NCBI GenBank assembly: GCA_038046765.1
Contig: JBBSVN010000007.1
Span: 18,102 to 82,101 of the forward strand
Direction of reading: 5' to 3'
DNA length: 64,000 nucleotides
Source of the DNA: Candidatus Micrarchaeota archaeon
GTDB taxonomy: Archaea; Micrarchaeota; Micrarchaeia; Anstonellales; Bilamarchaeaceae
A program made the position numbers and the translations under genes. Every line of letters begins with the position of its first letter. Position 1 is the stretch's first letter. The notes beneath the pieces are model-generated. The model saw only the letters and a list, made by a program, of their open reading frames with translations. It was not told the DNA's origin and searched no databases. Positions 1 to 14,025 of this stretch are shown here, one piece after another.

Positions 1-161
1 CTTGAAATTCCTTTTTGATCAGTTCTTGGACTCACCCATTTTAAACCCGCGAGTTGATGCTGATCTTCCAAGGCTTTTGCAACTTCCCATGCACGTTCTA
101 CTGCACTTGCTCTTTTACTTGCTCTAATTCTTTCTTGAATCGATAAAACCTGACTAGACAT
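1..161 (-). CDS. Partial CDS (first 53 codons; continues past window start), unknown function
   Basis: ATG at 161-159 (minus strand), open to position 1 (MSSQVLSIQERIRASKRASAVERAWEVAKALEDQ...). Absent from the ORF track because it is truncated. No recognisable motif. Confidence 0.35.
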   Translation of the reverse strand, partial: MSSQVLSIQERIRASKRASAVERAWEVAKALEDQHQLAGLKWVSPRTDQKGIS

Positions 162-298
162 AAAGATATTAAGATTCCAAAGAATTTTTAAAGATATGGT
201 AAAGAGAGTTAAATAAAGTAGTATTTAAAAATCAATTAAACAAAGAAAAATAAAAAATAATAAAAGAAAAAAATAAAAAAAAAAGAATCGCTCGGTGT

Positions 299-862
299 TT
301 ATTCAGTTACAATTAATTGTCCGCCCATTGTACTATGGCCAGATCCGCAGAATACTGAACATTTAAAACTAAACGTTCCAGATTTGTCTGCTACGAACGT
401 GGTTTCTTTTGTTTGACCTGCTGATGCGAACAAGTTTACGTTGAATTGCGAAATTGAAATCCCATGATCAACATCAACGCTGTTTAAGATTAATTTAACT
501 GTATCTCCTTTTTTGACTGTTGCAGTTCCAGGAGAGAAATCCCATTTTTTAGCAGTGAATTTTACTTCAACAACCTTTGGTTCGCTCGTAACTGTTGGAG
601 CTGGTGCGTTTGTAGTTGGTTTTGTTTCTGGCGCAGCTTGTTCGGTAGTTGTTGATGGCGTAGCTGAAACTGTTGGTTTAGTTTCACTTGGAGCGACTGT
701 TTCTGTTTTAGCCTCGCTTGCTGGCGCGTTTGGCGTAGTTGTTTTTTCTACATTTGCGCTTACAGTTGTCTTGTCTGTTGCTGGAATTGTTTTTGATTCA
801 GTACTTCCTGCACAACCAAATAATAGTGCAAATAACATTATCGATAATATAACTAATTTCAA
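299..862 (-). CDS. Secreted lipoprotein with a C-terminal CuA-like cupredoxin domain
   Basis: Signal peptide plus lipobox (MKLVILSIMLFALLFGC). About 85 aa of Thr/Pro/Ala/Glu-rich linker. C-terminal beta-rich domain with DHG...FKCSVFCGSGHSTMGGQLIV, i.e. C-x3-C-x3-H-x2-M as in the COX2 CuA site (CSELCGxxHxxM). Confidence 0.75.
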   Translation of the reverse strand: MKLVILSIMLFALLFGCAGSTESKTIPATDKTTVSANVEKTTTPNAPASEAKTETVAPSETKPTVSATPSTTTEQAAPETKPTTNAPAPTVTSEPKVVEVKFTAKKWDFSPGTATVKKGDTVKLILNSVDVDHGISISQFNVNLFASAGQTKETTFVADKSGTFSFKCSVFCGSGHSTMGGQLIVTE

Positions 863-974
863 ATTATCACCTTTATTTTTTTATGCTTCTCTAGATATTT
901 TGACTTGTCTTGATTTAATAAGAATTTTGATTAAATAAACGATAAAACGAATAATTTATAAAAAACTTGTTTTT

Positions 975-1050
975 GTACCCACAAAAGTAAAATGAAAACT
1001 GTGGGTGTAACTGTTATACCCACTACATTTAAATATTTATGTGGGTATAA
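975..1050. promoter_or_regulatory. Putative operator/promoter of the Fic gene: four ACCCAC/GTGGGT boxes, including a perfect 10-nt inverted repeat bracketing a TATA-like box
   Basis: TTATACCCAC (1014-1023) and GTGGGTATAA (1041-1050) are perfect reverse complements. Their 17-nt spacer is TACATTTAAATATTTAT. Further boxes: ACCCAC at 977-982 and GTGGGT at 1001-1006. The Fic ATG is at 1064. Confidence 0.5.
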
Positions 1051-1063
1051 CTTTTTGATACAT

Positions 1064-2029
1064 ATGGGAATAAAAAAAAGAGTGATTAGGGGTAATGCAT
1101 ACTACTACTTAGAAAAAAATATCCGTATCGGAGAAAGTAATTGGAAAACATTCTATATTTATTTAGGTTCAGCTAAGCCTTTAGTAAAAGAACTTAAAAA
1201 ATACGAAAAAATCCTTGCTAAAAAAATAGACATATTCCTAAGAAATCACGTAATTAAGCCAGGAACAGAATTTATTGATTCTAAAACAGCACTACTTTTA
1301 GAACGGATAAAAACATCAAACAGTAAGATACTTTCTAAACTAAGTAAAGACAAGAGAAATGCACACATAAAGACTCAAAGAGAAGCGTTTATAACAAATA
1401 CAAATGCGATTGAAGGAAGCAGATTAACATTAGACCAAACAAAAAGGATACTTGAACTTAAAAAAGAGTATAATTCTAAAGATAGAGAAGAAATAGAAGT
1501 TATAAATATGGGAAAATGTCTTGAACTTTATGATGAAATGCTAAATAAAAAAATTGATTTGAAAGAAGAAAAGATTTTGTATCTTCACCTAATCCTGCTT
1601 AAGGCAATTCCCGATTACGAGTCTTACACAGGAACATGGAGACCAGTTAATGTATATATTAGAGGTTCGAAATACGAATTTCCGCATTGGAAAGAAGTTC
1701 CAAAAATGGTTAAGGAACTTTTAAGCTGGTATGTGGAAAATAAAAATAGAATTCATCCGGTTGAATTAGCTGCAAAGTTTCACTCTAAGTTTGTAACAAT
1801 ACATCCTTTTGCAGATGGAAACGGAAGGATGGCCAGGTTATTGCTTAACTATATATTAGAGCTAAACGGGTTTCCTTTTGTCGATATTCCATTTTCAAAA
1901 AGAGATGAATACTTTAAAACGCAGGAAGAAGGGCATTTTGGAAAGTATAACTCATTTGTTAATTTCTTAGTTGAAGAGATAAAGAAGCAATTTAAGGATT
2001 TGAAAAAAGAATTTAGGAAAAAGAATTAG
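1064..2029 (+). CDS. Fic/DOC family protein (putative AMPylase / NMP-transferase)
   Basis: Canonical Fic motif HPFADGNGRMARLL (HxFx[DE]GNGRxxR). Start moved to the internal ATG at 1064 (MGIKKRV...) because the upstream part of the ORF overlaps the palindromic promoter region. Confidence 0.85.
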   Translation: MGIKKRVIRGNAYYYLEKNIRIGESNWKTFYIYLGSAKPLVKELKKYEKILAKKIDIFLRNHVIKPGTEFIDSKTALLLERIKTSNSKILSKLSKDKRNAHIKTQREAFITNTNAIEGSRLTLDQTKRILELKKEYNSKDREEIEVINMGKCLELYDEMLNKKIDLKEEKILYLHLILLKAIPDYESYTGTWRPVNVYIRGSKYEFPHWKEVPKMVKELLSWYVENKNRIHPVELAAKFHSKFVTIHPFADGNGRMARLLLNYILELNGFPFVDIPFSKRDEYFKTQEEGHFGKYNSFVNFLVEEIKKQFKDLKKEFRKKN

Positions 2030-3468
2030 TCAACCGTCGCAATAAATCCTTCTTCCTTTGCATCGTTTGCATATACTAAAAGCTTTCTTTTTGTAACGCT
2101 ATTTGGAGTTAAGCCATTTAGAAACTTTTGGTCAATATCCCCAGCTAAAACAGGAATTCCTGCTTCTCTAAATGCTCCGTTAAAATGAGACTGCAGACCA
2201 AAGTTTTTTTCTTCACATAAAGCTACGGCACTTACGTTTGAATGATCTGCGAATGTAACTTCTTTGAGCTGCATAAGATTAAACGCGGTTCCGTCGGGAA
2301 GTTTTAGAATTAATATGTAATCCGAAAGAGAGTCATTTATCGAACCAAGTTCTTCTAATCCATCGATACTGTCAATGTAAACAACGTTGTTAGACTTCTT
2401 GATTGACCTACCAAATACAGAACTACCAAAATTTCTTGGGTCGCTATACGGATCTCTATCAACATTCAAAATTTTTGCTGAATCAGGTATGTCTGGTTTT
2501 TTTACATCTTCAAATAAAACAGGAGCGCATTGTAAAATTGACCAGTTCACCATTGAAGATGAAAACTCGTGATAAGATGAACCTGAAATGTGTTGCTTTA
2601 AGTGATTTAAAATTTCTTGTAACCCATTAAATCCGTCTTCAAAAATTTCGCCCATTTTACTTAGAAGGTCTCGAATTAATTTTGTACCACTTGACCTACC
2701 TGAAGGATCTTTAAGGTTTGTTGCATGGTCAAGATTTCCCTCAGACAGCAATAGTGCTCCGGCTATATTACTATCCATGCTCATGCGATCAAACACTTTA
2801 TGATTTAGGTGACTGGATAAACAGGATCTAGACCACATATTATTCGCTCCTCCGATTCCAGTTCCAATCGTAAGTAATGATTCTTCTCCTCTAAAACGAG
2901 TAATTACATTAACATGATATGGTGTTCCGTAAACCTGTTCGCTAAAATCAAATCCTGCTACTGGCATAACTAAAACGCCTGGGTTTTCATCCATTGGTAA
3001 ACCCACTCGTTTTTTAAATGCTAAGACATCTCTTGAAAAGTCACTTGCTAAAATTCTTTTTGCGATTTGTTCTAATTTTTGCATGCTCTCTTCTGTTCTA
3101 TCAGCTAGCATAAAATCAGTATGCCATAATCCGACTCCAGCTGGTGTGCATTCATCAGAGCGAACAGCAACATACAAGCCTCTGAATGGATCAACAGATT
3201 CTCTTAATGCTTCTTTTTCTTCTCTATTAAAATCAGTTTTTTCGATCGCACGTTCTGATTCTTTATTTCTACTATCTGCTCCAGCTCGTGCTAGAAAAGG
3301 TCTCCATAAAAATGGAGTAATTGCGATTGAAGGCGGATAAAATATCCACGTATTAGCTTCTTCCAAGGTTTCAAAAACAGGTTTTTTTTCTCTTAGCGCT
3401 CGGCTTTTTGCTCCAGTATGATTTTGGCCAATAGTTTCCCTTGTTAGTCTAATATCAACTGAACGCAT
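2026..3468 (-). CDS. PEP-utilising-enzyme-like protein (PPDK_N-type ATP-grasp plus swivelling His domain); putative phosphotransferase
   Basis: LYVAVRSDECTPAGVG resembles VAVRSSAxxEDxxxxSFAGQ of PEP synthase/PPDK N-domains. C-terminal QSHFNGAFREAGIPVLAG resembles the phosphohistidine swivel motif TSHAAIVARELGIPAVVG. No PEP/pyruvate TIM-barrel domain is present. Confidence 0.4.
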   Translation of the reverse strand: MRSVDIRLTRETIGQNHTGAKSRALREKKPVFETLEEANTWIFYPPSIAITPFLWRPFLARAGADSRNKESERAIEKTDFNREEKEALRESVDPFRGLYVAVRSDECTPAGVGLWHTDFMLADRTEESMQKLEQIAKRILASDFSRDVLAFKKRVGLPMDENPGVLVMPVAGFDFSEQVYGTPYHVNVITRFRGEESLLTIGTGIGGANNMWSRSCLSSHLNHKVFDRMSMDSNIAGALLLSEGNLDHATNLKDPSGRSSGTKLIRDLLSKMGEIFEDGFNGLQEILNHLKQHISGSSYHEFSSSMVNWSILQCAPVLFEDVKKPDIPDSAKILNVDRDPYSDPRNFGSSVFGRSIKKSNNVVYIDSIDGLEELGSINDSLSDYILILKLPDGTAFNLMQLKEVTFADHSNVSAVALCEEKNFGLQSHFNGAFREAGIPVLAGDIDQKFLNGLTPNSVTKRKLLVYANDAKEEGFIATVD

Positions 3469-3498
3469 ATTTCCGGGCTGGTTAAAGGTTAATTGCAG

Positions 3499-3900
3499 TT
3501 ACTTCACCAACCTAAACTTAAACCCGTAATGAATTAAGCCTTCTGGATCGTCCTTTTGAATAACCCTAAAAACAGATTCAACTCTGTCGCCTGTTTTCAT
3601 ATCATTAGCGTGAGCATCTACGATTTGCGTAGTTAATCTTGCTCCTTCATCTAATTCGATAATCGCTAAAACATACGGAATCTGGTCTTCAAAACCAGCG
3701 GGTGGTGCGTGTATTTCTGTAAATGCATAAATTTTTCCTTTCCCGGAAAATTGTATTTCTTCTAGTTTTCCCTTTCTTCTACAAGTTGGGCAGACAGCTC
3801 GTTTTGGAAAATATGTTTTGTGGCAGGTTATACATTTAGTACCAAGTATTCGGTAACGCTCGGGTATTCTTCTCCATGTTAATGGTATTGATTGACGCAT
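3499..3900 (-). CDS. DUF35 family Zn-ribbon/OB-fold protein (thiolase-associated scaffold)
   Basis: Four-Cys ribbon CITCHKTYFPKRAVCPTCRRKG followed by an OB-like C-terminus. The size (133 aa) and the thiolase in the same cluster fit the archaeal DUF35 family. Confidence 0.75.
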   Translation of the reverse strand: MRQSIPLTWRRIPERYRILGTKCITCHKTYFPKRAVCPTCRRKGKLEEIQFSGKGKIYAFTEIHAPPAGFEDQIPYVLAIIELDEGARLTTQIVDAHANDMKTGDRVESVFRVIQKDDPEGLIHYGFKFRLVK

Positions 3901-3917
3901 GTTTATCTACCTCATAA

Positions 3918-4220
3918 TTACATTTCTTCAATTGGTTGACCAGTTAATGGACAACAAGGAATTGGACTTGATTTGATAAATGGACTATCTGGAGCCATCA
4001 TTAATGAGCATAAACCATAGAAATGAGCCGTACGAATTGTTGCTTTTGTGTCTGGCCTAACTCCAGTCGTCATTTCTCTAAATTTGCAATATTGTGACGT
4101 TAATTTCCCGAGTCGATGCATTAATCGCTTTCCACGAAATCCACGAGTATGTGCATGTACGTATAAATCTCCTAAATTTGCTACAGTTACTTTTCCGTTT
4201 TGAAGTTTTAGTTGTGTCAT
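3918..4220 (-). CDS. Paralog A of the MxQKLKLxxGKVTV N-terminal-module family (100 aa), unknown function
   Basis: Start reassigned to the ATG at 4220 (MTQLKLQNGKVTVANLGDL...YCKFREM). The N-terminal module is shared with three upstream genes. The C-terminus is Cys-rich and unique (PIPCCPLTGQPIEEM). Confidence 0.6.
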   Translation of the reverse strand: MTQLKLQNGKVTVANLGDLYVHAHTRGFRGKRLMHRLGKLTSQYCKFREMTTGVRPDTKATIRTAHFYGLCSLMMAPDSPFIKSSPIPCCPLTGQPIEEM

Positions 4221-4225
4221 ATAAA

Positions 4226-4849
4226 TCACCATCTCCAACGTGTAGGGCGACCACAAAAATCATATTCAGCAGGACGCATAACCCTGTGGCCATAATCGTC
4301 AAAAATACCTTCTTTATCTCTTTGTATTGCTCTTTGATGGACTGCTTCAAGTTCAATGTCTCTACGTTCTTGTTCGACTACAATTTCTACTCTATCAGCT
4401 AGAACTTCGATTTTCTTTAGCATAACATCTAATTGATCTGATAGCGGTCTTAATCTTTTTTGACCAAGTTCAATTTCTGGAATATCTTTTTCCATTTTAT
4501 TTACTGTCTCGAGCGATGTTTCTATTTCACTTAATAGATCATTTGCGTTTGTTTTTATCGCAATTCCCCTAAATGTGTATAAATCTGTTTTCATTTTTGG
4601 TATAAATTCTTTAATTTCTTCTAAGACTTCGAACATGTTTTGGAGGTGTCTGCTCAAAACAGCTTCGTTAACTTCCGGTTTATCACAGGCAACTTTTAAT
4701 GATTCTTGATCTCCTGCAAAACCTTTAAACCGAAGAAATTGCTCCACTAATCTATCTGAACTTCTTCCCTTTTGTTTGCATATTTGATGTAGTGCGAATA
4801 AAGTATTGACAGTTACTTTTCCGTCCATTAATCTTAGTTTTTGTTGCAT
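4226..4849 (-). CDS. Paralog B of the same family (207 aa), unknown function
   Basis: MQQKLRLMDGKVTVNTLFAL...QFLRFKG N-terminal module. Coiled-coil-like middle region. C-terminal EYDFCGRPTRWRW motif shared with paralog D. Confidence 0.65.
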   Translation of the reverse strand: MQQKLRLMDGKVTVNTLFALHQICKQKGRSSDRLVEQFLRFKGFAGDQESLKVACDKPEVNEAVLSRHLQNMFEVLEEIKEFIPKMKTDLYTFRGIAIKTNANDLLSEIETSLETVNKMEKDIPEIELGQKRLRPLSDQLDVMLKKIEVLADRVEIVVEQERRDIELEAVHQRAIQRDKEGIFDDYGHRVMRPAEYDFCGRPTRWRW

Positions 4850-4860
4850 AAATATTTACC

Positions 4861-5232
4861 TTATAAATCTAGTAATCTTTTCGTTCTTATTGCTGCAGGT
4901 CTATCCGCTTCCTTTACAAAATCTGGTTCACTTGGCGGAAGATCTCGTTCTGCAAAAGCACGAGCTTCGCTCTTAAAAGGATATTCTCCCAAAGAAGTTG
5001 TACCTAACCTTTGCGCTAATTCATCAGCGTAATCTGGTTGCATTCGTCTAGCTTTTTTATCCATCTTTGCAAAGCCATCTCCGATAGAATCTGGAAGAAT
5101 CTTTTCTCTAAATCTTTTAAGTTCAAAAGCTAAGGTTCGATATGTACTTCTACTTGTAAATCGACCACCAGCGAGTTGATCGACATGTTCAGCAGTTACT
5201 TTTCCGTTAGTTAGTTTTAGTTTCTGTTGCAT
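4861..5232 (-). CDS. Paralog C of the same family (123 aa), unknown function
   Basis: MQQKLKLTNGKVTAEHVDQL...FELKRFRE N-terminal module; unique C-terminus. Confidence 0.65.
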   Translation of the reverse strand: MQQKLKLTNGKVTAEHVDQLAGGRFTSRSTYRTLAFELKRFREKILPDSIGDGFAKMDKKARRMQPDYADELAQRLGTTSLGEYPFKSEARAFAERDLPPSEPDFVKEADRPAAIRTKRLLDL

Positions 5233-5250
5233 AAATATCTCCTTTAAAAT

Positions 5251-6222
5251 TTAATAAACACCGGAACTCCCGTACGATCGACCTGCACCAACCTTCGCAC
5301 TAATCTTATCCTGTTCGATTTCCTCTTTAGTGCGCTTTCGTTCTAGTAGTGGAAGATCTGTATACGCAAGAGTTGGTGCTGGAATATCTGGTCTTAAAGT
5401 CATCCAATTACTCCTAGGACGGCCGCAAATATCATAATCTCCTCTGTAAGGTATTCTACCTGTTTCAAAATAAGCATCATTAGCTTCAATTCTTCTTGCC
5501 CTCGCGGTTGCATCGAGTTCCGCTTCATGTCTCCTTCTAATCCCTGCGTTTTCCTTATCAACGCGTTCTCTATTTTTTTCAATATCTTCATCGCGCTTAT
5601 ATACCGACATGATATAAAGTATATACTCTAAATCAGTTAGGGTTACTGTTTGTATTTCTTGCCTTTCTTCATGTCCGAAAAGTTTCATTAAAGCAGCGTT
5701 GAACGGATGTTGGAGTTGATCTTTGTATCTATTAATTAAAACCTGGCTCGGATCTTCTTTACGTGCCTTGTTGTAAGCATCCATTAGCTCTGCATCATCA
5801 AGTTGTCCTGATTCAAAATATTTTTTACTTATTTCTTGCCAGTTTTCTCCTTTTTTAGCAGAAGCGATACATAATTCAAATAAATCATTTAGAGTTATCT
5901 TTTCTTGTTTGGGAATTGGCTTAGCAACTTCTGCAGCGATTGGTTTTTCTTGTTTCTCATCCTGTTTAATAATCTGGGGGTTTACTGGAGCGTCACTTTG
6001 TAATTTAGTCAACATGTCTTTAGCAAATGTATTAAGATCTCTAATGCCTCGCCTAAGTCTATCCTCAGAAGAAGTTGTACCTATATCCATCATATTTCTA
6101 AATCTGCGAATTTCTGAATATAATTTATCTGGGGTTCTCCCATTTTCACGTGCTCTTCTAGCTAGTACACTTACCTGTTTAGTTGTTACTTTTCCTTCTT
6201 GAAATTTTAGTTTTTGTGTCAT
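5251..6222 (-). CDS. Paralog D of the same family (323 aa), unknown function
   Basis: Start reassigned to the ATG at 6222 (MTQKLKFQEGKVTTKQVSVL...EIRRFRNM). Two further internal copies of a KxTLxDLxxL-type module (EKITLNDLFELCIAS, QTVTLTDLEYILYIM). GDYDICGRPRSNW motif as in paralog B. Confidence 0.65.
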   Translation of the reverse strand: MTQKLKFQEGKVTTKQVSVLARRARENGRTPDKLYSEIRRFRNMMDIGTTSSEDRLRRGIRDLNTFAKDMLTKLQSDAPVNPQIIKQDEKQEKPIAAEVAKPIPKQEKITLNDLFELCIASAKKGENWQEISKKYFESGQLDDAELMDAYNKARKEDPSQVLINRYKDQLQHPFNAALMKLFGHEERQEIQTVTLTDLEYILYIMSVYKRDEDIEKNRERVDKENAGIRRRHEAELDATARARRIEANDAYFETGRIPYRGDYDICGRPRSNWMTLRPDIPAPTLAYTDLPLLERKRTKEEIEQDKISAKVGAGRSYGSSGVY

Positions 6223-6252
6223 AAATTTACCTAGGTTCATCATTTTGATTAA

Positions 6253-6528
6253 TTATTCTGTAACAACATTTGTGTTATTTGCTCGGACTAGTATTATTTC
6301 CTCTTCATGTTCCCTTATCTGTACTAAAACTTTGCACCAACGAGTTCGGGTAGCAATACGAGCTAAGCTTATACCAAAATGACATTGATCTGGGTCTTCT
6401 TCGTAACCCATCCTAACTTTACGGCTCGCATCTTTAAATTTAATAAAAGAACTGTGTTCAATGTCGATCTTAAGATCAGAATTGTCTTTGGCACGCGTAT
6501 TAACTTTAGTAAAACGAATTTGGTTCAT
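6253..6528 (-). CDS. Hypothetical protein (91 aa)
   Basis: ORF with SD-like GGTGAATAACTT preceding the ATG. Tightly packed in the co-directional cluster. No recognisable motif. Confidence 0.5.
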   Translation of the reverse strand: MNQIRFTKVNTRAKDNSDLKIDIEHSSFIKFKDASRKVRMGYEEDPDQCHFGISLARIATRTRWCKVLVQIREHEEEIILVRANNTNVVTE

Positions 6529-6551
6529 AAGTTATTCACCATTTTTAAAAT

Positions 6552-6788
6552 TTAATAAATACTTTTACCTGTGCAACCACCGTAGTAGTGTCTTCGGACG
6601 CTTGTATTAGATATAGTTCGATCTGCAATAAACTTTGCTCTGGTTTCTGCTTCAAGAGTATCTGTCGCAGAAAAGAATCGTCTTAATACTAATTGTCTTT
6701 CAAGTTCCTGTGCTCGTTTTTCAAGTACTGCTCGTTCTGATGGCGAAACTCTTTGCAATTTTATTGCTTGACTTTTTAATAATTTCAT
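6552..6788 (-). CDS. Hypothetical coiled-coil protein (78 aa)
   Basis: Start placed at the third codon (GGTAAATGTTTATGAAATTA context). Sequence MKLLKSQAIKLQRVSPSERAVLEKRAQELERQL..., with C-terminus RRHYYGGCTGKSIY. Confidence 0.45.
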   Translation of the reverse strand: MKLLKSQAIKLQRVSPSERAVLEKRAQELERQLVLRRFFSATDTLEAETRAKFIADRTISNTSVRRHYYGGCTGKSIY

Positions 6789-6852
6789 AAACATTTACCT
6801 TTTTTTTCGTTTGCTACTAGCAACTCGCCCATTGCTCAAAGCTCATGGCTTA

Positions 6853-8016
6853 TCAATATCCCCGTTTATACAAGTGTACAACAGCAGTTGCGCCTGATCC
6901 ACCGACATTATGAGTCATTCCAATTTCAGCGTCTTTAACTTGTCTTTCTCCAGCTTCGCCACGAAGTTGCCATGCAATTTCAACAGCCTGTTTAATTCCA
7001 GTTGCACCAACCGGGTGACCACATGCTTTTAATCCGCCTGAAGTATTAACGACAACATCGCCACCATATGTGGTTTTGCCTTCGATACTTGCGTGTCCGC
7101 CTTTTCCTTTGGGGAAAAATCCTAAATCTTCAATTGCTAAAATTTCTGCAATCGTAAAACAATCATGAACTTCTAAAACATCGACATCGCTTGGTTTTAA
7201 TTTTGCTTGTTCAAATGCTTTTTTACCAGCTACTTCAGTTGCGCGTAATCTAGTTAAACTATCTCGAGAATGTAATGCAATGTTATCGCTTGCCTGGCTG
7301 CTAGCGAATATCTCAATTGGTTTTTCACAGTATTTTTTAGCAATTTCTAAAGGAGCTAAAACAACAGCTGCTGCTCCATCGGTTATTGGTGAACAATCAA
7401 AAACTTTTAATGGATCGGCAATCATTTTTGAATTCATTACTTGTTCAATTGTAATTTCTTTTTGATATTGTGCGTATTTGTTTTTAGCGCCATGTTTATG
7501 ATTTTTTACTGCAACGCTAGCCATCATTTCCTCTGTCGTTCCAAATTCTTCCATGTGTTTTTTTGCCATTAGAGCATAAAGCCCTGGAAAAGTAGCGCCT
7601 AAAAATAATTCCCATTCCTGATCTCCAGCACCACCTAAAATATCGCTAACTTCATTAACATCTAAGTCAGTCATTTTTTCTACTCCGCCAACGACAACAA
7701 TATCGTGCATGCCAGAACCAACTGCCATGTAACCTTGCCTTAAAGCTAAACTTCCGCTTGCGCAAGCTCCTTCAACTCTTGTAATTGGTTTTGGGGTTAA
7801 ACCCATGTAATCAGCTAGTAATGCTCCAATATGCTCTTGACCCACTAATCTACCTGAAGCCATTGTTCCGATAAAACCTGCGTCCAGATCCTCACCATGA
7901 ACATGCGCGTCATCTAGTGCTTTTACTCCTGCTTCAATTACTAAATCCCGAAATCCTCTTTCCCAATGTTCGCCAAATTGCGTCATTGCTGCTCCTATAA
8001 TTGCTACTTTTCGCAT
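6853..8016 (-). CDS. Thiolase (acetyl-CoA C-acetyltransferase, archaeal / SCP-x-like type)
   Basis: [16 protein letters not shown]-terminus. Active-site Cys context [13 protein letters not shown]-terminal GHPVGATG and [12 protein letters not shown]. Start set at 8016 behind GGGTG; the ORF-track start at 8067 is a TTG. Confidence 0.85.
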
Positions 8017-8194
8017 GAATATACACCCTATAAACTCTTTTCTATTGTTCTTTGGCAATGCCAGCAAACAAATTATAAGTTAAAAACTAACCTAAAGCTT
8101 ACACTAACGTTGTTAACTACGTTTTTTAAATAGCGCATATTCGTATACGTTGAATAACGAAAGACTAAAATTAGGCGAAATTAGCAGGGGATTT

Positions 8195-8881
8195 CTAAGG
8201 ATTGACCAAACTCATCATTTCAATTGAACCTGCGCGCTCCAATACAAATAAACTCAACATGGTACCAAACCCTGCTTTTATAGATAAATATCTTTGTTCT
8301 CCAAAGTTAAGGTTCAACTCATCTTGCGCATATCTTGCCGTATGAGTAGAATGCATAAAATTTCTTATTTCAAACATAATCTCCACATCTGCTGCGCCAG
8401 GGCAGATTACAAATGGATCTGAATCTGCTTTTTTATTAGGTTTAAATTCGATCATTAGATGCGTACCACCAGAATGTTGTTCTTCAATTGCAATAATCGA
8501 ATCGGGTTTGAATGTGACACCAAAAAAGTTATAAAATCCAAGACCAAAATTGGGACGAACAATAAAAACATCAGCATCAGTTGTATGCATTAATGCAGCA
8601 GTAACTAATAATTGTTGATCTGCCCTGTGTTTAGAAATAAATACCGCACCTTCATCCACACTTCCCTTATGTGTAAATGAAACGCTTCGGTCACATGACT
8701 CTAAAAGTCTTTGCATAAATGTTTTCTGCGTTCGAGGTTTACAATCAACAGATTTAATAATTCTTCTTCGTTCTCTAACTTCCAATTGTGCTATGCTCAT
8801 GAAAAACACCCATAGAATAATATAGATAAATGGAACTGTAATTTGTGTAACTATTAATGTACCCATGCGTTTAAAAAACAT
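8195..8881 (-). CDS. Hypothetical protein with N-terminal TM segment
   Basis: Long ORF with a hydrophobic N-terminus (LIVTQITVPFIYIILWVFF) and no recognisable motif. An alternative start at 8800 is possible. Confidence 0.45.
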   Translation of the reverse strand: MFFKRMGTLIVTQITVPFIYIILWVFFMSIAQLEVRERRRIIKSVDCKPRTQKTFMQRLLESCDRSVSFTHKGSVDEGAVFISKHRADQQLLVTAALMHTTDADVFIVRPNFGLGFYNFFGVTFKPDSIIAIEEQHSGGTHLMIEFKPNKKADSDPFVICPGAADVEIMFEIRNFMHSTHTARYAQDELNLNFGEQRYLSIKAGFGTMLSLFVLERAGSIEMMSLVNP

Positions 8882-9158
8882 CTTTTACGACAAATAACTG
8901 AAAAAGAGGAATTGATTCCAGCTAAAAAAGATATATTCAGTTGCTGAATATTCAGATGGTGAATATAACTATTAACCAACCCAAGCTAAGTACTGGTTTT
9001 TATCATATGGTTAAATGATAAAACAAAATGTGAACAAAAGTTTTCGATTAATATAAAGCGGAAATAGAAATTGGCAAACATTATCAATTTCTTGCGAATT
9101 TATTTTAAAATTTTTTTATACAAGCATTTAAAAAATTAGTCAAGCTAAACTTTAGAAT

Positions 9159-9575
9159 ATGCTTCCAATACAAGACTCTCTATTACGATTAATGTTAGCT
9201 ACACTAATTGGTTTTCTTATTGGTTTAACGAGAAAAAATAAACCTGCAGGGCTTCGAACATTCGCTTTAATTTCCCTAGGTTCAGCCATATTTACATTAA
9301 TTTCAATTGAAAATTTGGATTCAGATAAAAGCAGGGTAATTAGTCAGATTGTAACTGGTATTGGTTTTCTTGGTGCGGGTGTTATCTGGAAACAAGGGTT
9401 TAAACTTAGCGGATTAACAACTGCGGCCGCCATATGGGTAACTGCTGCGATAGGGGTCATGATTGGATTAGGTTTTTGGGTAGAAGCTTTAGTCGGTGCA
9501 CTGTTAACAATCATGGTCTTGTTTTCAAAAAGAATATTTGTTAAAGCAGGTTTAGAAGAAGAAGGTGGGCAGTGA
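9159..9575 (+). CDS. mgtC: MgtC/SapB family membrane protein
   Basis: LRLMLATLIGFLIGLTRKNKPAGLRTFALISLGSAIFT and GIGFLGAGVIWK match the MgtC N-terminal membrane-domain pattern. Size is 138 aa. Confidence 0.75.
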   Translation: MLPIQDSLLRLMLATLIGFLIGLTRKNKPAGLRTFALISLGSAIFTLISIENLDSDKSRVISQIVTGIGFLGAGVIWKQGFKLSGLTTAAAIWVTAAIGVMIGLGFWVEALVGALLTIMVLFSKRIFVKAGLEEEGGQ

Positions 9576-9642
9576 TTCTTTTAGTTTTTTTGTAACAAAA
9601 TTCGCAAGTCTTTAATTAACTTACGTGCTTATATACTACCTT

Positions 9643-11274
9643 ATGTCTGACCAAAAAATAAAATACATAGTCGTAGTCGGGTCAATAATGTCCGGCTTAG
9701 GCAAGGGAATAGTTACTGCTTCTATAGGAAAATTACTGCAAGCTAGAGGGTACAAGGTATCTCCCATTAAATTTGATGGTTATTTAAATGTTGATTGTGG
9801 GACAATGAATCCATTTAGACACGGAGAAGTTTTTGTACTAGATGATGGCACAGAAGTTGATATGGATTTTGGAACGTACGAGAGATTTTTGAATCAGTCA
9901 ATATCTGGAGAAAACAGTATAACTGGAGGAAAATTATTTCAAAAAATAATCGAAAAAGAAAGACGCGGAGATTACTTAGGGAGAGATGTCCAGTTTGTTC
10001 CTCATTTAACTGATGAAATAAAAAAATGGGTTCGAAACGTTGGAAAAAAGAATGACTCTGATGTTGTAATCGTAGAAGTGGGTGGAACAGTTGGGGACTT
10101 AGAAAATAGCTATTTCCTGGAAGCAATGAGGCAATTAGGAGTTGAAGAAACTGTTCTATTTGCACAGTTGACATTTTTACCTAGTTTATCTGAGGGCGAG
10201 CAAAAAACAAAACCGACCCAGCATGCAACTAGACTTTTACAAAGTATGGGTATTAATCCGGATATTATTCTATGCAGAGGCAATGAAAAACTAAGTGATG
10301 AAGCTAGAAAAAAACTCGCATTATATTGTAATGTAAAAGAAGAATTTGTTTTTGATGATCCAACTTTAAATACTATATATGAATTACCACTGCTTCTTGA
10401 AAAGCAGAATTTATACAAAGCAATTGCTGAAAAATTAAAACTAGAAGATCGAAAACCTGATTTAAAAGAATGGAAAGAAAAAGTTGACCGTATAATAAAT
10501 CCGAAAAACAGCGCAATAAAAATCGCAGTTGTTGGTAAATATACTTCAGTTAAAGACGCTTATATTAGCGTAAAAGAAGCATTAGTTCACTCTGCTGCAG
10601 AAATAGATTATGGCTTGGAAATCGAGTGGGTAGAAGCTAGCGATTTAGAAAAGATGGAGAAGGAAAAAGTTACCAAATTCCTAGGTAAATTCGATGGAAT
10701 TATTGTTCCAGGTGGATTTGGAGAGCGGGGGATTGAAGGCAAAATTATTGCAATAAATTATGCGAGACTAAATAAAATTCCTTATTTAGGTTTATGCCTA
10801 GGCTTACAACTTATGGTTATAGAGTTTGCAAGAAATGTCTGCAAGTTACAAACAGCACATTCTACTGAATTTGACAAAGTTACAAAGTATCCTGTAATTG
10901 ACTTTTTACCAGAACAAAAACAGATTGCAAAAATGGGGGCGAGTATGCGACTAGGAGCTTATTCATGCGATATTACTAATAATACGATTACAAAACAAGC
11001 GTACGATAAAAAAGAATGTTCCGAGCGTCACAGACACAGGTATGAAGTTAATCCTGATTTTGTTGATGAAATAAGTAAATTTGGGTTAGTTTTTGCCGGA
11101 TTTCATAAATCATCTAAAGGCGATGTTACTGAAATTGTCGAGTGGCCTAGTGAATACGGGTTTGGGGTTGCGACACAGGCACATATTGAACTTAAGTCTA
11201 GATTAGAAACTCCAGCTCCGATATTTGTGCAATATATGAAAGCAGCGGCTAAGAGGAAGAAGGAAGGGAAATAA
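9643..11274 (+). CDS. pyrG: CTP synthase
   Basis: KYIVVVGSIMSGLGKGI, VIVEVGGTVGDLE, and the glutamine amidotransferase motifs PYLGLCLGLQ and HRHRYEVN. Start taken at ATG 9643 rather than GTG 9625. Confidence 0.95.
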   Translation: MSDQKIKYIVVVGSIMSGLGKGIVTASIGKLLQARGYKVSPIKFDGYLNVDCGTMNPFRHGEVFVLDDGTEVDMDFGTYERFLNQSISGENSITGGKLFQKIIEKERRGDYLGRDVQFVPHLTDEIKKWVRNVGKKNDSDVVIVEVGGTVGDLENSYFLEAMRQLGVEETVLFAQLTFLPSLSEGEQKTKPTQHATRLLQSMGINPDIILCRGNEKLSDEARKKLALYCNVKEEFVFDDPTLNTIYELPLLLEKQNLYKAIAEKLKLEDRKPDLKEWKEKVDRIINPKNSAIKIAVVGKYTSVKDAYISVKEALVHSAAEIDYGLEIEWVEASDLEKMEKEKVTKFLGKFDGIIVPGGFGERGIEGKIIAINYARLNKIPYLGLCLGLQLMVIEFARNVCKLQTAHSTEFDKVTKYPVIDFLPEQKQIAKMGASMRLGAYSCDITNNTITKQAYDKKECSERHRHRYEVNPDFVDEISKFGLVFAGFHKSSKGDVTEIVEWPSEYGFGVATQAHIELKSRLETPAPIFVQYMKAAAKRKKEGK

Positions 11275-11283
11275 AAAAAGGAA

Positions 11284-11508
11284 TTATTTTTTCGGTATTA
11301 ATTTTTTAGGGTCTTTTAAATTCTCTAAGCGTTCAATTCTTTTTTCTAATTCATCTATTTTACCGGTAAGTTTTGTGTACATCCTTCCAAGATCTTTTTC
11401 AGGGGGCACATTGATTAGGATCTTCTTTTCTTTTGTGGGTTCTATTAATTTAATTATTTCGGATTTTTTATCTATTTTCGATTCTTGGTATCCCATTAGT
11501 TTCACCAA
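11284..11508 (-). CDS. Hypothetical small coiled-coil protein
   Basis: 74-aa ORF, Lys/Glu-rich, no motif. Confidence 0.35.
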   Translation of the reverse strand: MVKLMGYQESKIDKKSEIIKLIEPTKEKKILINVPPEKDLGRMYTKLTGKIDELEKRIERLENLKDPKKLIPKK

Positions 11509-11550
11509 ATAAACTTCGAAGAATATATATGTACTTTTCCAATTTCATGA

Positions 11551-11596
11551 TTCTGGCAAGTTCCGGCAAGAATAAGTTTGCCAGATTCTGCCGGAA
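11551..11596. repeat. 46-nt repeat, copy 1 (four 10-bp TTCYGGCAAG-type half-sites)
   Basis: TTCTGGCAAGTTCCGGCAAGAATAAGTTTGCCAGATTCTGCCGGAA. Matches 12910-12955 at 45 of 46 positions. Confidence 0.9.
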
Positions 11597-11629
11597 AGGA
11601 ATAAAAACCTTTTTATTCAATAAAAATAT

Positions 11630-12901
11630 ATGGAAAACGAAAAAGTTGAATATAAAAAAAGCCTTGCAACTATTGATGAGATTTTGCAGAGTGTTACTGC
11701 TTTTGCGAATACTTTTGGAGGGGAGGTATACGTTGGTATAAATGATGATGGCAGTACCGCAGGAGTTAGTATTGGTAAGAATACTATTGAAAACCTTACA
11801 AAAGATATTTCAAGAGATATCGACCCAAAAATAAATATCTCAATAAAACTTTTAGAAAAAGAAGATAAGAAAATAATTTTAATTAGTGTTCCCTCGAGTA
11901 GTATGAAACCACATTTTTTTAGGGGAGTTGCCTATCAACGACTCGGTAAAAGCAATGTTAAGCTTTCATCGCGTCAGCTTGAGGATATGATCATAAAAAG
12001 GGCATTATCACTGCATGATGTCGATAGTCTAAATCTTAATATAAAAATGTCTGATTTAAGGGATGATTTGGTAAAAGAGTACGTTAAGGAAATAGGAAAA
12101 AAATATCAAAATCTTGCTAATACAATAAGGACTTTGGGTTTGGGTGAGGAAGAACAAATACTTCCATCAGCAGTTTTATTTTTTGGTCAAAACCCCAAAA
12201 TGTTCTTTCCACTTTATGGGGTCAAATGTGCCATATTTAAAGAAAATGATATGCTTGCCATAAGGGATTTTTCCGATCCGATTTATTCAATGTTAAATCA
12301 GGTAATATTGTTCATAAAACAAAGCATTCCTTCATCAATAAAATTTGAGGGAATAAAAAGGGTTGATGAATCTGCAATTCCAGATGTTGTCATACGTGAG
12401 GCTTTGATAAATGCGCTTATTAATGCAGATTATACTCTTGATGCGACTATATACATAAAGATTACGCAGGATGTTATTGAAATAAAAAATGCAGGCGTAC
12501 TTCCATCTCCACTTACTCTTGATGAACTGGAAAAACCCCACATTTCAAAACCTAGAAATAGAAGAATAGCTGGCTTGTGCCACGAAATCAAATGGATAGA
12601 ACATTGGGGGGAAGGTACGCTAAAAATATTTAAAGAAATGAGAAGACGTGGGCTCGGTGTGGAGTTTAGTGAGTTTAATGGTTATTTTTCCGTAACGTTA
12701 CACACAAAAGAACTACCGTTAACCGATAGGCAGAATATTCTATTCAAATTTGTCCAAGATAAGAAAAGAGCTACTGTCAAGGAACTCTCTTCATTAGGTA
12801 TTCCAGCAAGAACAATTCGTTTAGAATTAGCTTCCCTGTCAAAAAGGGGTCTTATAAAAAAATCTGGGAAAGGTAAGTTAACATACTACCAAACCGAGTA
12901 A
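11630..12901 (+). CDS. COG2865-type protein: AlbA_2 (Schlafen-like) N-domain plus ATPase-like middle region plus C-terminal wHTH
   Basis: N-terminus EKVEYKKSL..ILQSVTAFANTFGGEVYVGINDDGSTAGV is the AlbA_2 signature. The middle region has REALINALINADY. The C-terminus is HTH-like (KRATVKELSSLGIPARTIRLELASLSKRGLI). Confidence 0.7.
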   Translation: MENEKVEYKKSLATIDEILQSVTAFANTFGGEVYVGINDDGSTAGVSIGKNTIENLTKDISRDIDPKINISIKLLEKEDKKIILISVPSSSMKPHFFRGVAYQRLGKSNVKLSSRQLEDMIIKRALSLHDVDSLNLNIKMSDLRDDLVKEYVKEIGKKYQNLANTIRTLGLGEEEQILPSAVLFFGQNPKMFFPLYGVKCAIFKENDMLAIRDFSDPIYSMLNQVILFIKQSIPSSIKFEGIKRVDESAIPDVVIREALINALINADYTLDATIYIKITQDVIEIKNAGVLPSPLTLDELEKPHISKPRNRRIAGLCHEIKWIEHWGEGTLKIFKEMRRRGLGVEFSEFNGYFSVTLHTKELPLTDRQNILFKFVQDKKRATVKELSSLGIPARTIRLELASLSKRGLIKKSGKGKLTYYQTE

Positions 12902-12909
12902 AAAAATCA

Positions 12910-12955
12910 TTCTGGCAAGTTCCGGCAAGAATAAGTTTGCCAGAATCTGCCGGAA
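12910..12955. repeat. 46-nt repeat, copy 2
   Basis: TTCTGGCAAGTTCCGGCAAGAATAAGTTTGCCAGAATCTGCCGGAA, starting 9 nt after the stop codon of the AlbA_2 gene. Confidence 0.9.
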
Positions 12956-13044
12956 CGAGATTTAACACGAAAAATCGAAATTATATTGATGCAAAACTGC
13001 ACTAAAAAGGCTTAATTTGGTGCAGAGGTGCAGCATAAAACCGC

Positions 13045-14025
13045 TTATAGATTAGGCACATAACTTGTTTTATAGTTTTTAATTAATGAATAATATTTGT
13101 AATCCTTAATATCATTTGGGAATTTTGCTTTAAAACTTTCTATAAGTTGAGTGAATTTTTCAAAATTTTCTATTTCGACATCAAATTCTAAATCACTGGA
13201 AACAAGGCTTTTTTCAGTGTAAACAACATTAGAATGCGAAATTATATGCTGTCTTACATTTTCTGCATTTTTAAATTCTTTAAAAAACAAATCAACTTTG
13301 TAATATTGTTTGCCTAGTTTGTTTATATCAAAAATTGTTCGGAAACCTGTAATTATATTTTTCTTCAATAATTGCTTCATGTGATACCTGACAGTTACAA
13401 TACTCATGTTAATCGCTTTGGATGTTTCTACTAAAGAAGCTCTCGCATTGTTTGATAGAAAAGTAAGCAACTTATAATCTAATCCATCGAGTTTTTCTTG
13501 TTTTGATTCTGTTATTGCATTAAAAGTTAGTTTTTCCGTGTTTTTACTTCCTATTAAATAAGATCTGGAAAATTCTACATACTCTGTAAACACTGATAAA
13601 TGATAACTAGAAAAATATTCTCCAAATTTGATTTTAAATTCAGTCCAAAATTCCTGGTATTCCCAGATACTTTTTGCGAAGACACCCAAAGCAAGATGGT
13701 ATTCCCCGTTTATTCGGTAAAATACGCCAACATTTTTCTTATTTTTTAGATAATTCGTAATCTCTGCCTCTATTTTCGGGCTAGCATTTTGTAATCTTAC
13801 ATATGGTCTATAAACAGTATATCCAAGCTTGGAAAAATCAATAAGTGTGTAATATCCTTTAATTACTCCTGTTTTTTCAAGTAAATTTATCCTATACTTC
13901 ACAGTTTCTTTGGCAACTCTGATTTTTTTACCAAGTTCGCTATAACTGATTCTGGAATTTTTATCAAGTTCACAGAGGATTTTGTAATCTATTAAATCTA
14001 GTTTTTCGACTTTTTCTATTGTCAT
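13045..14025 (-). CDS. Lrp/AsnC family regulator, fused tandem (two HTH plus RAM-like units)
   Basis: Two copies of the pattern DYKIL..L..N.R.S..E..K.....TV.Y.....L.K..II.G: residues 10-60 (LIDYKILCELDKNSRISYSELGKKIRVAKETVKYRINLLEKTGVIKGY) and about 180-228 (LDYKLLTFLSNNARASLVETSKAINMSIVTVRYHMKQLLKKNIITGF). Confidence 0.75.
   Translation of the reverse strand: MTIEKVEKLDLIDYKILCELDKNSRISYSELGKKIRVAKETVKYRINLLEKTGVIKGYYTLIDFSKLGYTVYRPYVRLQNASPKIEAEITNYLKNKKNVGVFYRINGEYHLALGVFAKSIWEYQEFWTEFKIKFGEYFSSYHLSVFTEYVEFSRSYLIGSKNTEKLTFNAITESKQEKLDGLDYKLLTFLSNNARASLVETSKAINMSIVTVRYHMKQLLKKNIITGFRTIFDINKLGKQYYKVDLFFKEFKNAENVRQHIISHSNVVYTEKSLVSSDLEFDVEIENFEKFTQLIESFKAKFPNDIKDYKYYSLIKNYKTSYVPNL

Follow-up and report, generated by a model that had tools for sequence, protein, structure and literature searches.

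In a Candidatus Micrarchaeota archaeon of the family Bilamarchaeaceae, the genes for acetoacetyl-CoA thiolase (ACAT) and for its DUF35 scaffold protein are separated by 2955 nt that hold six orphan genes for proteins of 78, 91, 323, 123, 207 and 100 aa. The interpretation that we favor, and consider reasonably probable, is that the mevalonate-entry genes of this organism are retained but dispersed, and that the six genes make up a derived cassette, found in only two species, whose members are probably read-through passengers. This locus lies at positions 2026 to 8194 of a stretch of 64,000 nucleotides (contig JBBSVN010000007.1 of assembly GCA_038046765.1, positions 18,102 to 82,101 of the forward strand), which we call the window throughout. 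Thiolase and DUF35 assemble with HMG-CoA synthase (HMGCS) into one acetoacetyl-CoA channelling complex, and the adjacency of their genes is attributed to that. One study speaks of ketothiolase/DUF35 pairs throughout the archaeal phyla as "highly conserved genomic neighbors" and notes that a single operon holds the genes in Methanothermococcus thermolithotrophicus (bioRxiv 10.1101/2024.07.05.601840).

A preliminary description of this DNA, made from the letters alone, had placed thiolase, six unknowns, DUF35 and a 480-aa protein in this order on the minus strand, separated by short gaps. The list of open reading frames (ORFs) bears this out, since the ORFs and strands of the cluster match and the intergenic spacers from thiolase to the 480-aa protein measure 5 to 64 nt. 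In the direction of transcription, with Shine-Dalgarno (SD) motifs where noted, the locus comprises:

8881-8195, minus strand: 228-aa ORF from the ORF list, co-directional, 5' of the spacer
8017-8194, minus strand: AT-rich spacer of 178 nt 5' of thiolase, with a TATA-like CTTATAA about 55 nt and an SD-like GGGTG about 12 nt before the ATG
8016-6853, minus strand: acetoacetyl-CoA thiolase, 387 aa (Pfam Thiolase_N/Thiolase_C_1; NCBIfam PRK06064)
6788-6552, minus strand: p78, 78 aa, no family match, SD AAGGT before the ATG
6528-6253, minus strand: p91, 91 aa, no family match, SD TGGTGA before the ATG
6222-5251, minus strand: par323, paralog 1, 323 aa, N-terminal module encoded at 6085-6222
5232-4861, minus strand: par123, paralog 2, 123 aa, N-terminal module encoded at 5095-5232
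4849-4226, minus strand: par207, paralog 3, 207 aa, N-terminal module encoded at 4712-4849
4220-3918, minus strand: par100, paralog 4, 100 aa, N-terminal module encoded at 4071-4220
3900-3499, minus strand: DUF35 scaffold protein, 133 aa (zf-ChsH2 and OB_ChsH2_C)
3468-2026, minus strand: p480, 480 aa, no Pfam or NCBIfam match, assigned on fold evidence

The six unknown ORFs fill their 2.9 kb nearly gap-free, and every gene from thiolase through DUF35 is preceded by an SD-like GGTG, AGGT or GGAG located 7 to 10 nt 5' of its ATG. At two junctions of the cluster the SD of a gene includes the stop codon of the gene before it, and the codons of a C-terminal YDFCGRPTRWRW motif in par207 include the SD of par100. 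Judging from its sequence, the spacer at 8017-8194 is likely the promoter region of the cluster. Given their own SDs and the stop codons within SDs, the cassette genes would probably be read through from this thiolase promoter in one transcript that still reaches DUF35. A hairpin 3' of the thiolase stop codon was no better than shuffled sequence, Rfam gave no RNA family in window positions 1 to 12000, and a search of the whole window yielded no tRNA. Scanning for bacterial-type promoters and terminators yielded no more than the shuffle expectation, with a bacterial model that is uninformative for an archaeon. For the 228-aa ORF upstream of the spacer, searches of Pfam, NCBIfam, PHROGs and PADLOC returned nothing meaningful.

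The third gene of the complex is encoded nearby. Looking up exact matches to the DUF35 protein led us to contig CAYISJ010000013.1 (GCA_964365985.1, our locus L001), which is 100% identical to positions 1 to 13900 of the window and continues beyond the window's left edge. This contig carries a 356-aa HMGCS at 18096-19166 on the same strand as thiolase (TIGR00748, 572 bits at a cutoff of 353), the start of which lies 7,693 nt past the DUF35 stop and about 4.2 kb outside window position 1. Seven genes stand between DUF35 and HMGCS, with p480 followed by Fic (on the opposite strand), a COX2-like cupredoxin, a 351-aa ORF, PP2C, a protein kinase and a 150-aa ORF. The earlier statement that HMGCS is missing is therefore correct within the window and wrong for the identical contig: the absence is a window-edge artefact, and a bona fide archaeal HMGCS is found nearby in the genome.

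The thiolase matches PRK06064 with 588 bits (cutoff 420) and AcCoTHIOL_METTL with 591 bits (cutoff 600), and its translation carries CAS, HDCF and GHP as instances of the catalytic motifs CxS, HDxF and GHx. These motifs are the archaeal ACAT signature, of which HDxF has been lost in repurposed bacterial complexes (PMC12960953). DUF35 shows both zf-ChsH2 (PF12172, E 6e-9) and OB_ChsH2_C (PF01796, E 9e-20), that is, a CxxC...CxxC zinc ribbon and an OB fold. Among the columns that are at least 97% conserved in relatives, thiolase retains 45 of 45, DUF35 18 of 18 and HMGCS 82 of 83. Compared with its counterpart in the sister-species locus L086 (described below), the thiolase has 96.4% protein identity with a non-synonymous rate (dN) of 0.029, a synonymous rate (dS) of 0.87 and a dN/dS of 0.03; for DUF35 the values are 95.5% identity, dN 0.028, dS 1.9 and dN/dS 0.015. 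Both proteins are thus under strong purifying selection, and as far as their sequences tell, thiolase, DUF35 and HMGCS would most likely still assemble the canonical complex.

For synteny we drew on about 150 related loci, obtained from a thiolase genome scan plus 80 metagenome loci found with DUF35, in which thiolase, DUF35 and HMGCS were located by tblastn; 79 non-redundant thiolase loci were classified. HMGCS lies directly upstream of thiolase in 40 of these, and in 39 of the 40 the gap to DUF35 is at most 267 nt and usually 8 to 16 nt. Another 28 loci, the window's group among them, have no HMGCS upstream despite at least 1.2 kb of upstream sequence. The preliminary description had named routine non-adjacency of thiolase and DUF35 in this lineage, with HMGCS elsewhere, as the observation that would speak against its view of the locus, and this is largely what the 28 HMGCS-detached loci display: thiolase and DUF35 are adjacent in 7 (4 to 13 nt) and split in 13 (0.35 to 5.1 kb), while 8 have no DUF35 within 2.4 to 10 kb. 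Operon break-up is unusual for archaea generally and common in the window's group.

The cargo of the other split loci is unrelated to the window cassette. Most commonly it is a co-directional rpe-tktN-tktC-tal set of the non-oxidative pentose-phosphate pathway, confirmed with Pfam, which occupies 13 fetched loci that reduce to 10 contigs after merging of duplicates (L009, L012, L013, L093, L105, L107, L111, L112, L116-L118, L125 and L129). Four small membrane proteins form the cargo in three distinct contigs (L006, L078 and L132), and a single ORF does so in further split loci. Some of the rpe-tktN-tktC-tal loci also have an S-adenosylmethionine-decarboxylase-like gene on the opposite strand.

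A neighbor-joining tree of thiolase places the window together with L086 at 100% bootstrap, and this pair joins L004 and L003/L101/L102 at 86.5%. In these nearest sisters, thiolase and DUF35 are only 5 to 9 nt apart and the thiolase stop codon lies within the DUF35 SD (GGCTGGTGA..ATG). Because the closest sisters carry such a tight, coupled junction, parsimony on the thiolase tree makes the cassette most simply a derived insertion. Of the two versions of events considered earlier, insertion of a cassette into the mevalonate-entry operon is hence supported, whereas replacement of part of the operon is not supported, since HMGCS is intact 7.7 kb downstream and is already detached from thiolase in all 28 related loci that offer enough upstream sequence. 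The genome-collection scan with thiolase assigns the window to Micrarchaeota (DPANN); its closest representative, from a "Ca. Bilamarchaeaceae" metagenome-assembled genome (MAG), is 82% identical. Assembly names indicate a groundwater origin, with Hainich H52 labels for example in ERZ1292620 (samples ERR3858127 and ERR3858129).

As a separate observation, archaeal-type thiolase-DUF35 clusters, most of them with HMGCS in front, also occur in bacterial MAGs labelled Babeliales, Saccharibacteria, Chloroflexota and Pseudomonadota (L049, L051, L052, L054, L057-L059, L072 and L075), with thiolases 37% to 54% identical to that of the window. This suggests either inter-domain transfer or mis-binning.

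A diverged version of the cassette is found in L086 (Logan SRR22388092, 3,970 bp), where thiolase is followed by a 157-aa paralog (MQKLKLHGGKVT...), the 106-aa protein P0027 (MKQKLRLIEGKVT...), DUF35 and a kinase-like gene. Both inserted genes bear the N-terminal module (N-module) shared by the four paralogs of the window, so that six genes of the two species conserve it; L086 has neither p78 nor p91. By position, P0027 corresponds to par100 as its ortholog, with 43% amino acid identity over 97 aa, dN 0.48, dS 1.7 and a dN/dS of about 0.29, so that this pair is still under some purifying selection while changing about 17 times faster than the thiolase and DUF35 flanks. Strain variants of the window's species (L087 and L088) differ by 1 to 2 single-nucleotide polymorphisms (SNPs) only, too few for a within-species dN/dS. 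The 5' ends of the paralog genes, SDs included, are 80% to 87% identical in DNA (82% for par123 versus par207), which together with a copy number of two versus four is consistent with tandem duplication. A likeness of the DUF35 start to these paralog 5' ends (35 of 57 nt) was discarded, as the best random comparison reached 33 of 57 and a shared SD/ATG context accounts for it.

Put together, the history of the locus was probably one in which the ancestral HMGCS-thiolase-DUF35 operon came apart, leaving HMGCS past DUF35, and the tight, translationally coupled thiolase-DUF35 junction was opened by the co-directional cassette, a derived state by parsimony. The sister species has two paralogs and the window four, apparently through tandem duplication, next to p78 and p91, which have turned up in this species alone. 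The cassette proteins would then most likely be passengers on a housekeeping operon and not new subunits.

Searches for relatives of the cassette led back to the same two species. With par323 and then the paralog alignment as queries, 5.8e9 clustered proteins yielded same-organism copies only, and an exhaustive search of 1.84e9 representatives with the paralog profile gave one genuine relative from another organism, P0027. Further candidates (P0022, P0024-26 and P0028-29) were rejected as frameshifted fragments from assemblies of about 0.5x coverage (L084 and L085) of the same organism. Scanning 168 fetched loci with a hidden Markov model of the N-module revealed no member beyond the window's own species and L086, a degenerate DNA motif had 0 matches in JGI metagenomes and IMG/VR, and BLAST against phage and plasmid collections found no match to the cassette. 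Neither tblastx nor blastn detected further copies in the remaining window. For the six unknown genes, nothing meaningful was found in Pfam, NCBIfam, PHROGs or PADLOC, with no match below E 0.003 in the latter two.

The four paralogs recognized in the preliminary description are real, but their likeness is limited to the first 42 to 46 residues or so (MxQKLKLxxGKVT..L..L....G.....L...F.RF; pairwise z 4.5 to 14.8). Past this module, significant similarity links par323 and par207 alone (z 3.6), through a short YDxCGRPxxW motif that reads YDICGRPRSNW in par323; apart from its C-terminal YDFCGRPTRWRW motif, what follows the module in par207 bears no relation to the other paralogs. An internal repeat of the N-module within par323, noticed by eye, was not significant. 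The cassette proteins are small and soluble, without hydrophobic segments, and have isoelectric points of 8.7 to 10.3 (10.3 for p78), except for par207 with 6.2. AlphaFold2 (AF2), run for par100 with a five-sequence alignment, predicts a poorly ordered N-terminal hairpin and helices at residues 13-25, 30-52 and 58-75 (pLDDT 73), and a Foldseek search with this model gave nothing significant (best E 1.2 in the PDB and 0.6 in BFVD). Against PDB sequences, the N-module profile produced marginal matches only, namely RAP (E 9e-5), a designed repeat protein and the "serine protein kinase" 9xip; Pfam does not back these leads, and a PrkA-like gene is absent among the ten largest other ORFs of the window. 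Residues 434-465 of 9xip chain A (a 692-aa protein) align to the module with a domain E of 0.07, a likeness that is striking by eye, especially for the 157-aa paralog of L086.

Small DNA-binding proteins and antitoxins of the ribbon-helix-helix (RHH) type resemble the N-module in its predicted order of a short N-terminal strand, a helix, a Gly turn and a helix, and resemble the cassette proteins in their basic character and in tails that vary after the module. They differ in that the module has no sequence or fold match to RHH families and that its predicted second helix is long (23 residues). Based on these predictions, the N-module might be a dimerization domain or a nucleic-acid- or protein-binding domain to which variable tails give specificity, but this is the least certain part of our account and we think it rather doubtful.

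Several other explanations of the cassette deserve consideration. A remnant of a mobile element or virus, such as a fragment of a DPANN virus or plasmid or a toxin-antitoxin-like addiction module, could well look like these small, basic, tandem orphans with their common N-terminal module and variable tails; no cellular homologues were found in our searches, and a place between two essential genes would guard such a remnant against deletion. The base composition speaks against this. The impression that the region from 2 to 8.9 kb is less AT-rich was confirmed by computation, with a GC content of 0.373 for 2026-8016 versus 0.337 in the rest, and no other 6 kb of the window are as rich in GC. However, this excess is carried by codon positions 1 and 2, while the GC content at third positions (GC3) of the six unknown genes is 0.18 to 0.27 versus a window mean of 0.253 (sd 0.034) and their synonymous codon choice (-0.962) falls within the host distribution (-0.999, sd 0.064). 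GC3 and synonymous codons are thus fully host-like, and nothing in the composition points to a recent foreign origin. Furthermore, the cassette has no integrase or transposase and no att-like or flanking direct or inverted repeats, and neither the searches of PHROGs, PADLOC, phage and plasmid collections and IMG/VR nor the fold comparison with BFVD produced a match, so we regard a mobile origin as improbable. That the six ORFs, or a part of them, are spurious and sit in an expanded intergenic region appears very unlikely to us: p78 and p91 have turned up in a single species and none of the six has a known domain, but each ORF is preceded by an SD at correct spacing, the 2.9 kb are tiled almost without gaps, and the coding-type pattern of GC1>GC2>GC3 supports genuine coding, as do the conservation of the N-module and the dN/dS of par100 and P0027. 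An assembly chimera with the cassette mis-joined into the operon would be a natural worry for a MAG, yet independent assemblies from NCBI, ENA and Logan agree on the same arrangement with 0 to 2 SNPs between them and L086 carries a diverged two-gene version, which makes this explanation extremely unlikely.

The preliminary description had offered functional recruitment as its second reading, under which the N-module proteins would have joined thiolase and DUF35 as novel accessory subunits or as regulators of the pair. The same slot is occupied in two species, the genes are tightly packed between thiolase and DUF35, HMGCS no longer adjoins them, and alternative complexes mediated by DUF35 exist (bioRxiv 10.1101/2024.07.05.601840; PMC12960953). 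Nevertheless, in the closest relatives the slot is empty or filled with unrelated cargo, the cassette changes about 17 times faster than the partners proposed for it, HMGCS is intact, the thiolase keeps its canonical motifs and every conserved column, dN/dS is 0.015 to 0.03 for DUF35 and thiolase, and Pfam and NCBIfam gave no enzyme domain for any of the cassette proteins; recruitment to a new function is therefore not supported and seems unlikely. A more speculative variant, which we consider quite improbable, would see the thiolase-DUF35 junction of this Micrarchaeota group as a protected, constitutively transcribed "nursery" slot, in which new genes are captured or arise and soon diversify. 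The N-module family would then be young, perhaps of de novo origin, and its products might have started to dock on the thiolase/DUF35 scaffold as lineage-specific regulators of the supply of isoprenoid precursors, as could suit a DPANN archaeon that depends on a host. We thus keep to a derived cassette of passengers, against which a few observations nonetheless weigh. The thiolase tree is that of one protein, and all HMGCS-detached loci group at only 22% bootstrap. Conservation of p78 and p91 is seen in a single species, and occupation of the same slot in two species at a dS of about 1 to 2 could reflect a functional tie to thiolase and DUF35 as well as inertia. A single transcript is put in question by a 19-nt repeat (95% identical; 5243-5261 and 6544-6562; GTRTTTATTAAATTTTAAA on the coding strand) directly 5' of the par123 and p91 starts, as these TATA-like repeats may be internal promoters or else traces of duplication. 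Finally, the idea of RHH-like binding has no support from Pfam or from the Foldseek matches given above.

Downstream of DUF35, p480 had been described as PEP (phosphoenolpyruvate)-utilising-like, which holds at the level of fold but not of sequence family. Its AF2 model (pLDDT 87.6, pTM 0.88) matches rifampin phosphotransferase and pyruvate phosphate dikinase (PPDK) in Foldseek at E 1e-8 to 1e-6 (for 5hv2, 5hv6 and 1kbl, E 1e-8 to 2e-7 with probability 1.0), and the model and these fold matches support an N-terminal ATP-grasp nucleotide-binding domain. At E<0.1 there is no Pfam or NCBIfam match, including to PPDK_N and PEP-utilizers, and among PDB sequences phmmer found nothing and the family profile gave only weak RFC matches. 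We collected 18 homologues that are 33% to 45% identical, none with a Pfam domain, and the only source-named member comes from a Micrarchaeota MAG. Across these 19 p480-family sequences, H428 is nearly invariant within SHxNGAxREAGI, which we take to resemble the swivel phospho-His motif TSHAA...ARE.GIP. p480 resembles rifampin phosphotransferase, PPDK and PEP synthase in its ATP-grasp fold and perhaps in a C-terminal domain with this near-invariant His, but unlike in rifampin phosphotransferase and PPDK its 480 aa leave no room for a third domain (substrate/TIM-barrel or rifampin-binding). On the strength of the modelled fold, p480 represents a putative Micrarchaeota-type ATP-grasp/His-swivel family that is previously undescribed.

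A functional link between p480 and DUF35 was considered and rejected because the homologues of p480 stand in unrelated contexts, either between pyrB and carB or beside a transposase. In L086, p480 is not next to DUF35 and the kinase-like gene is found there instead. The adjacency is probably incidental, with p480 as an unrelated downstream neighbor. Ser/Thr kinase-like genes lie past DUF35 both in L086 (2941-3885, weak Pkinase) and in L001 (14978-17191, PP2C and Pkinase); these are only 27% identical, which indicates that the region past DUF35 is also turning over fast.

Elsewhere in the window, a 50-nt direct repeat (96% identical) at 11547-11596 and 12906-12955 flanks a SLFN_AlbA_2/HATPase_c_4 gene (11630-12901). 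It contains the interleaved palindromes TTCTGGCAA..TTGCCAGAA and TTCCGGCA..TGCCGGAA, and the pair could be a pair of operators or the footprint of an insertion. The gene of a UDP-glucose/GDP-mannose dehydrogenase at 23703-26399 is split by an intein with a LAGLIDADG homing-endonuclease domain.

These loci show that the linkage of thiolase and DUF35 can be lost: after HMGCS leaves, unrelated co-directional cargo repeatedly opens the junction while the enzymes remain constrained. This bears on how far operon adjacency is needed for assembly of the complex and on how housekeeping operons host new genes. The cassette is also a clear case from nature of an orphan gene family that changes about 17 times faster than the genes right beside it. 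The expected biochemistry of mevalonate entry is unchanged, and what we describe is the break-up of an operon in one lineage and not a new pathway.

The closest known system is the archaeal acetoacetyl-CoA thiolase/HMG-CoA synthase/DUF35 complex of M. thermolithotrophicus that was reportedly characterized by Vögeli et al. All three of its proteins are encoded here and are canonical in sequence, with the catalytic motifs of thiolase and the zinc ribbon and OB fold of DUF35, but the genes are not contiguous, with thiolase and DUF35 2.96 kb apart and HMGCS 7.7 kb past DUF35. Ketothiolase/DUF35 pairs without HMGCS are known from the fatty-acid synthase complex of Sulfolobus acidocaldarius (bioRxiv 10.1101/2024.07.05.601840) and from the bacterial acyltransferases PhlACB/MucABC (PMC12960953). 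The window locus is similar to these in having a thiolase/DUF35 pair without a neighboring HMGCS and with other genes around it, but it differs from them in lacking reductase, dehydratase, polyketide synthase or nonribosomal peptide synthetase partners. Moreover, the repurposed bacterial forms have lost HDxF, whereas the thiolase of the window retains this motif and HMGCS has been kept nearby.

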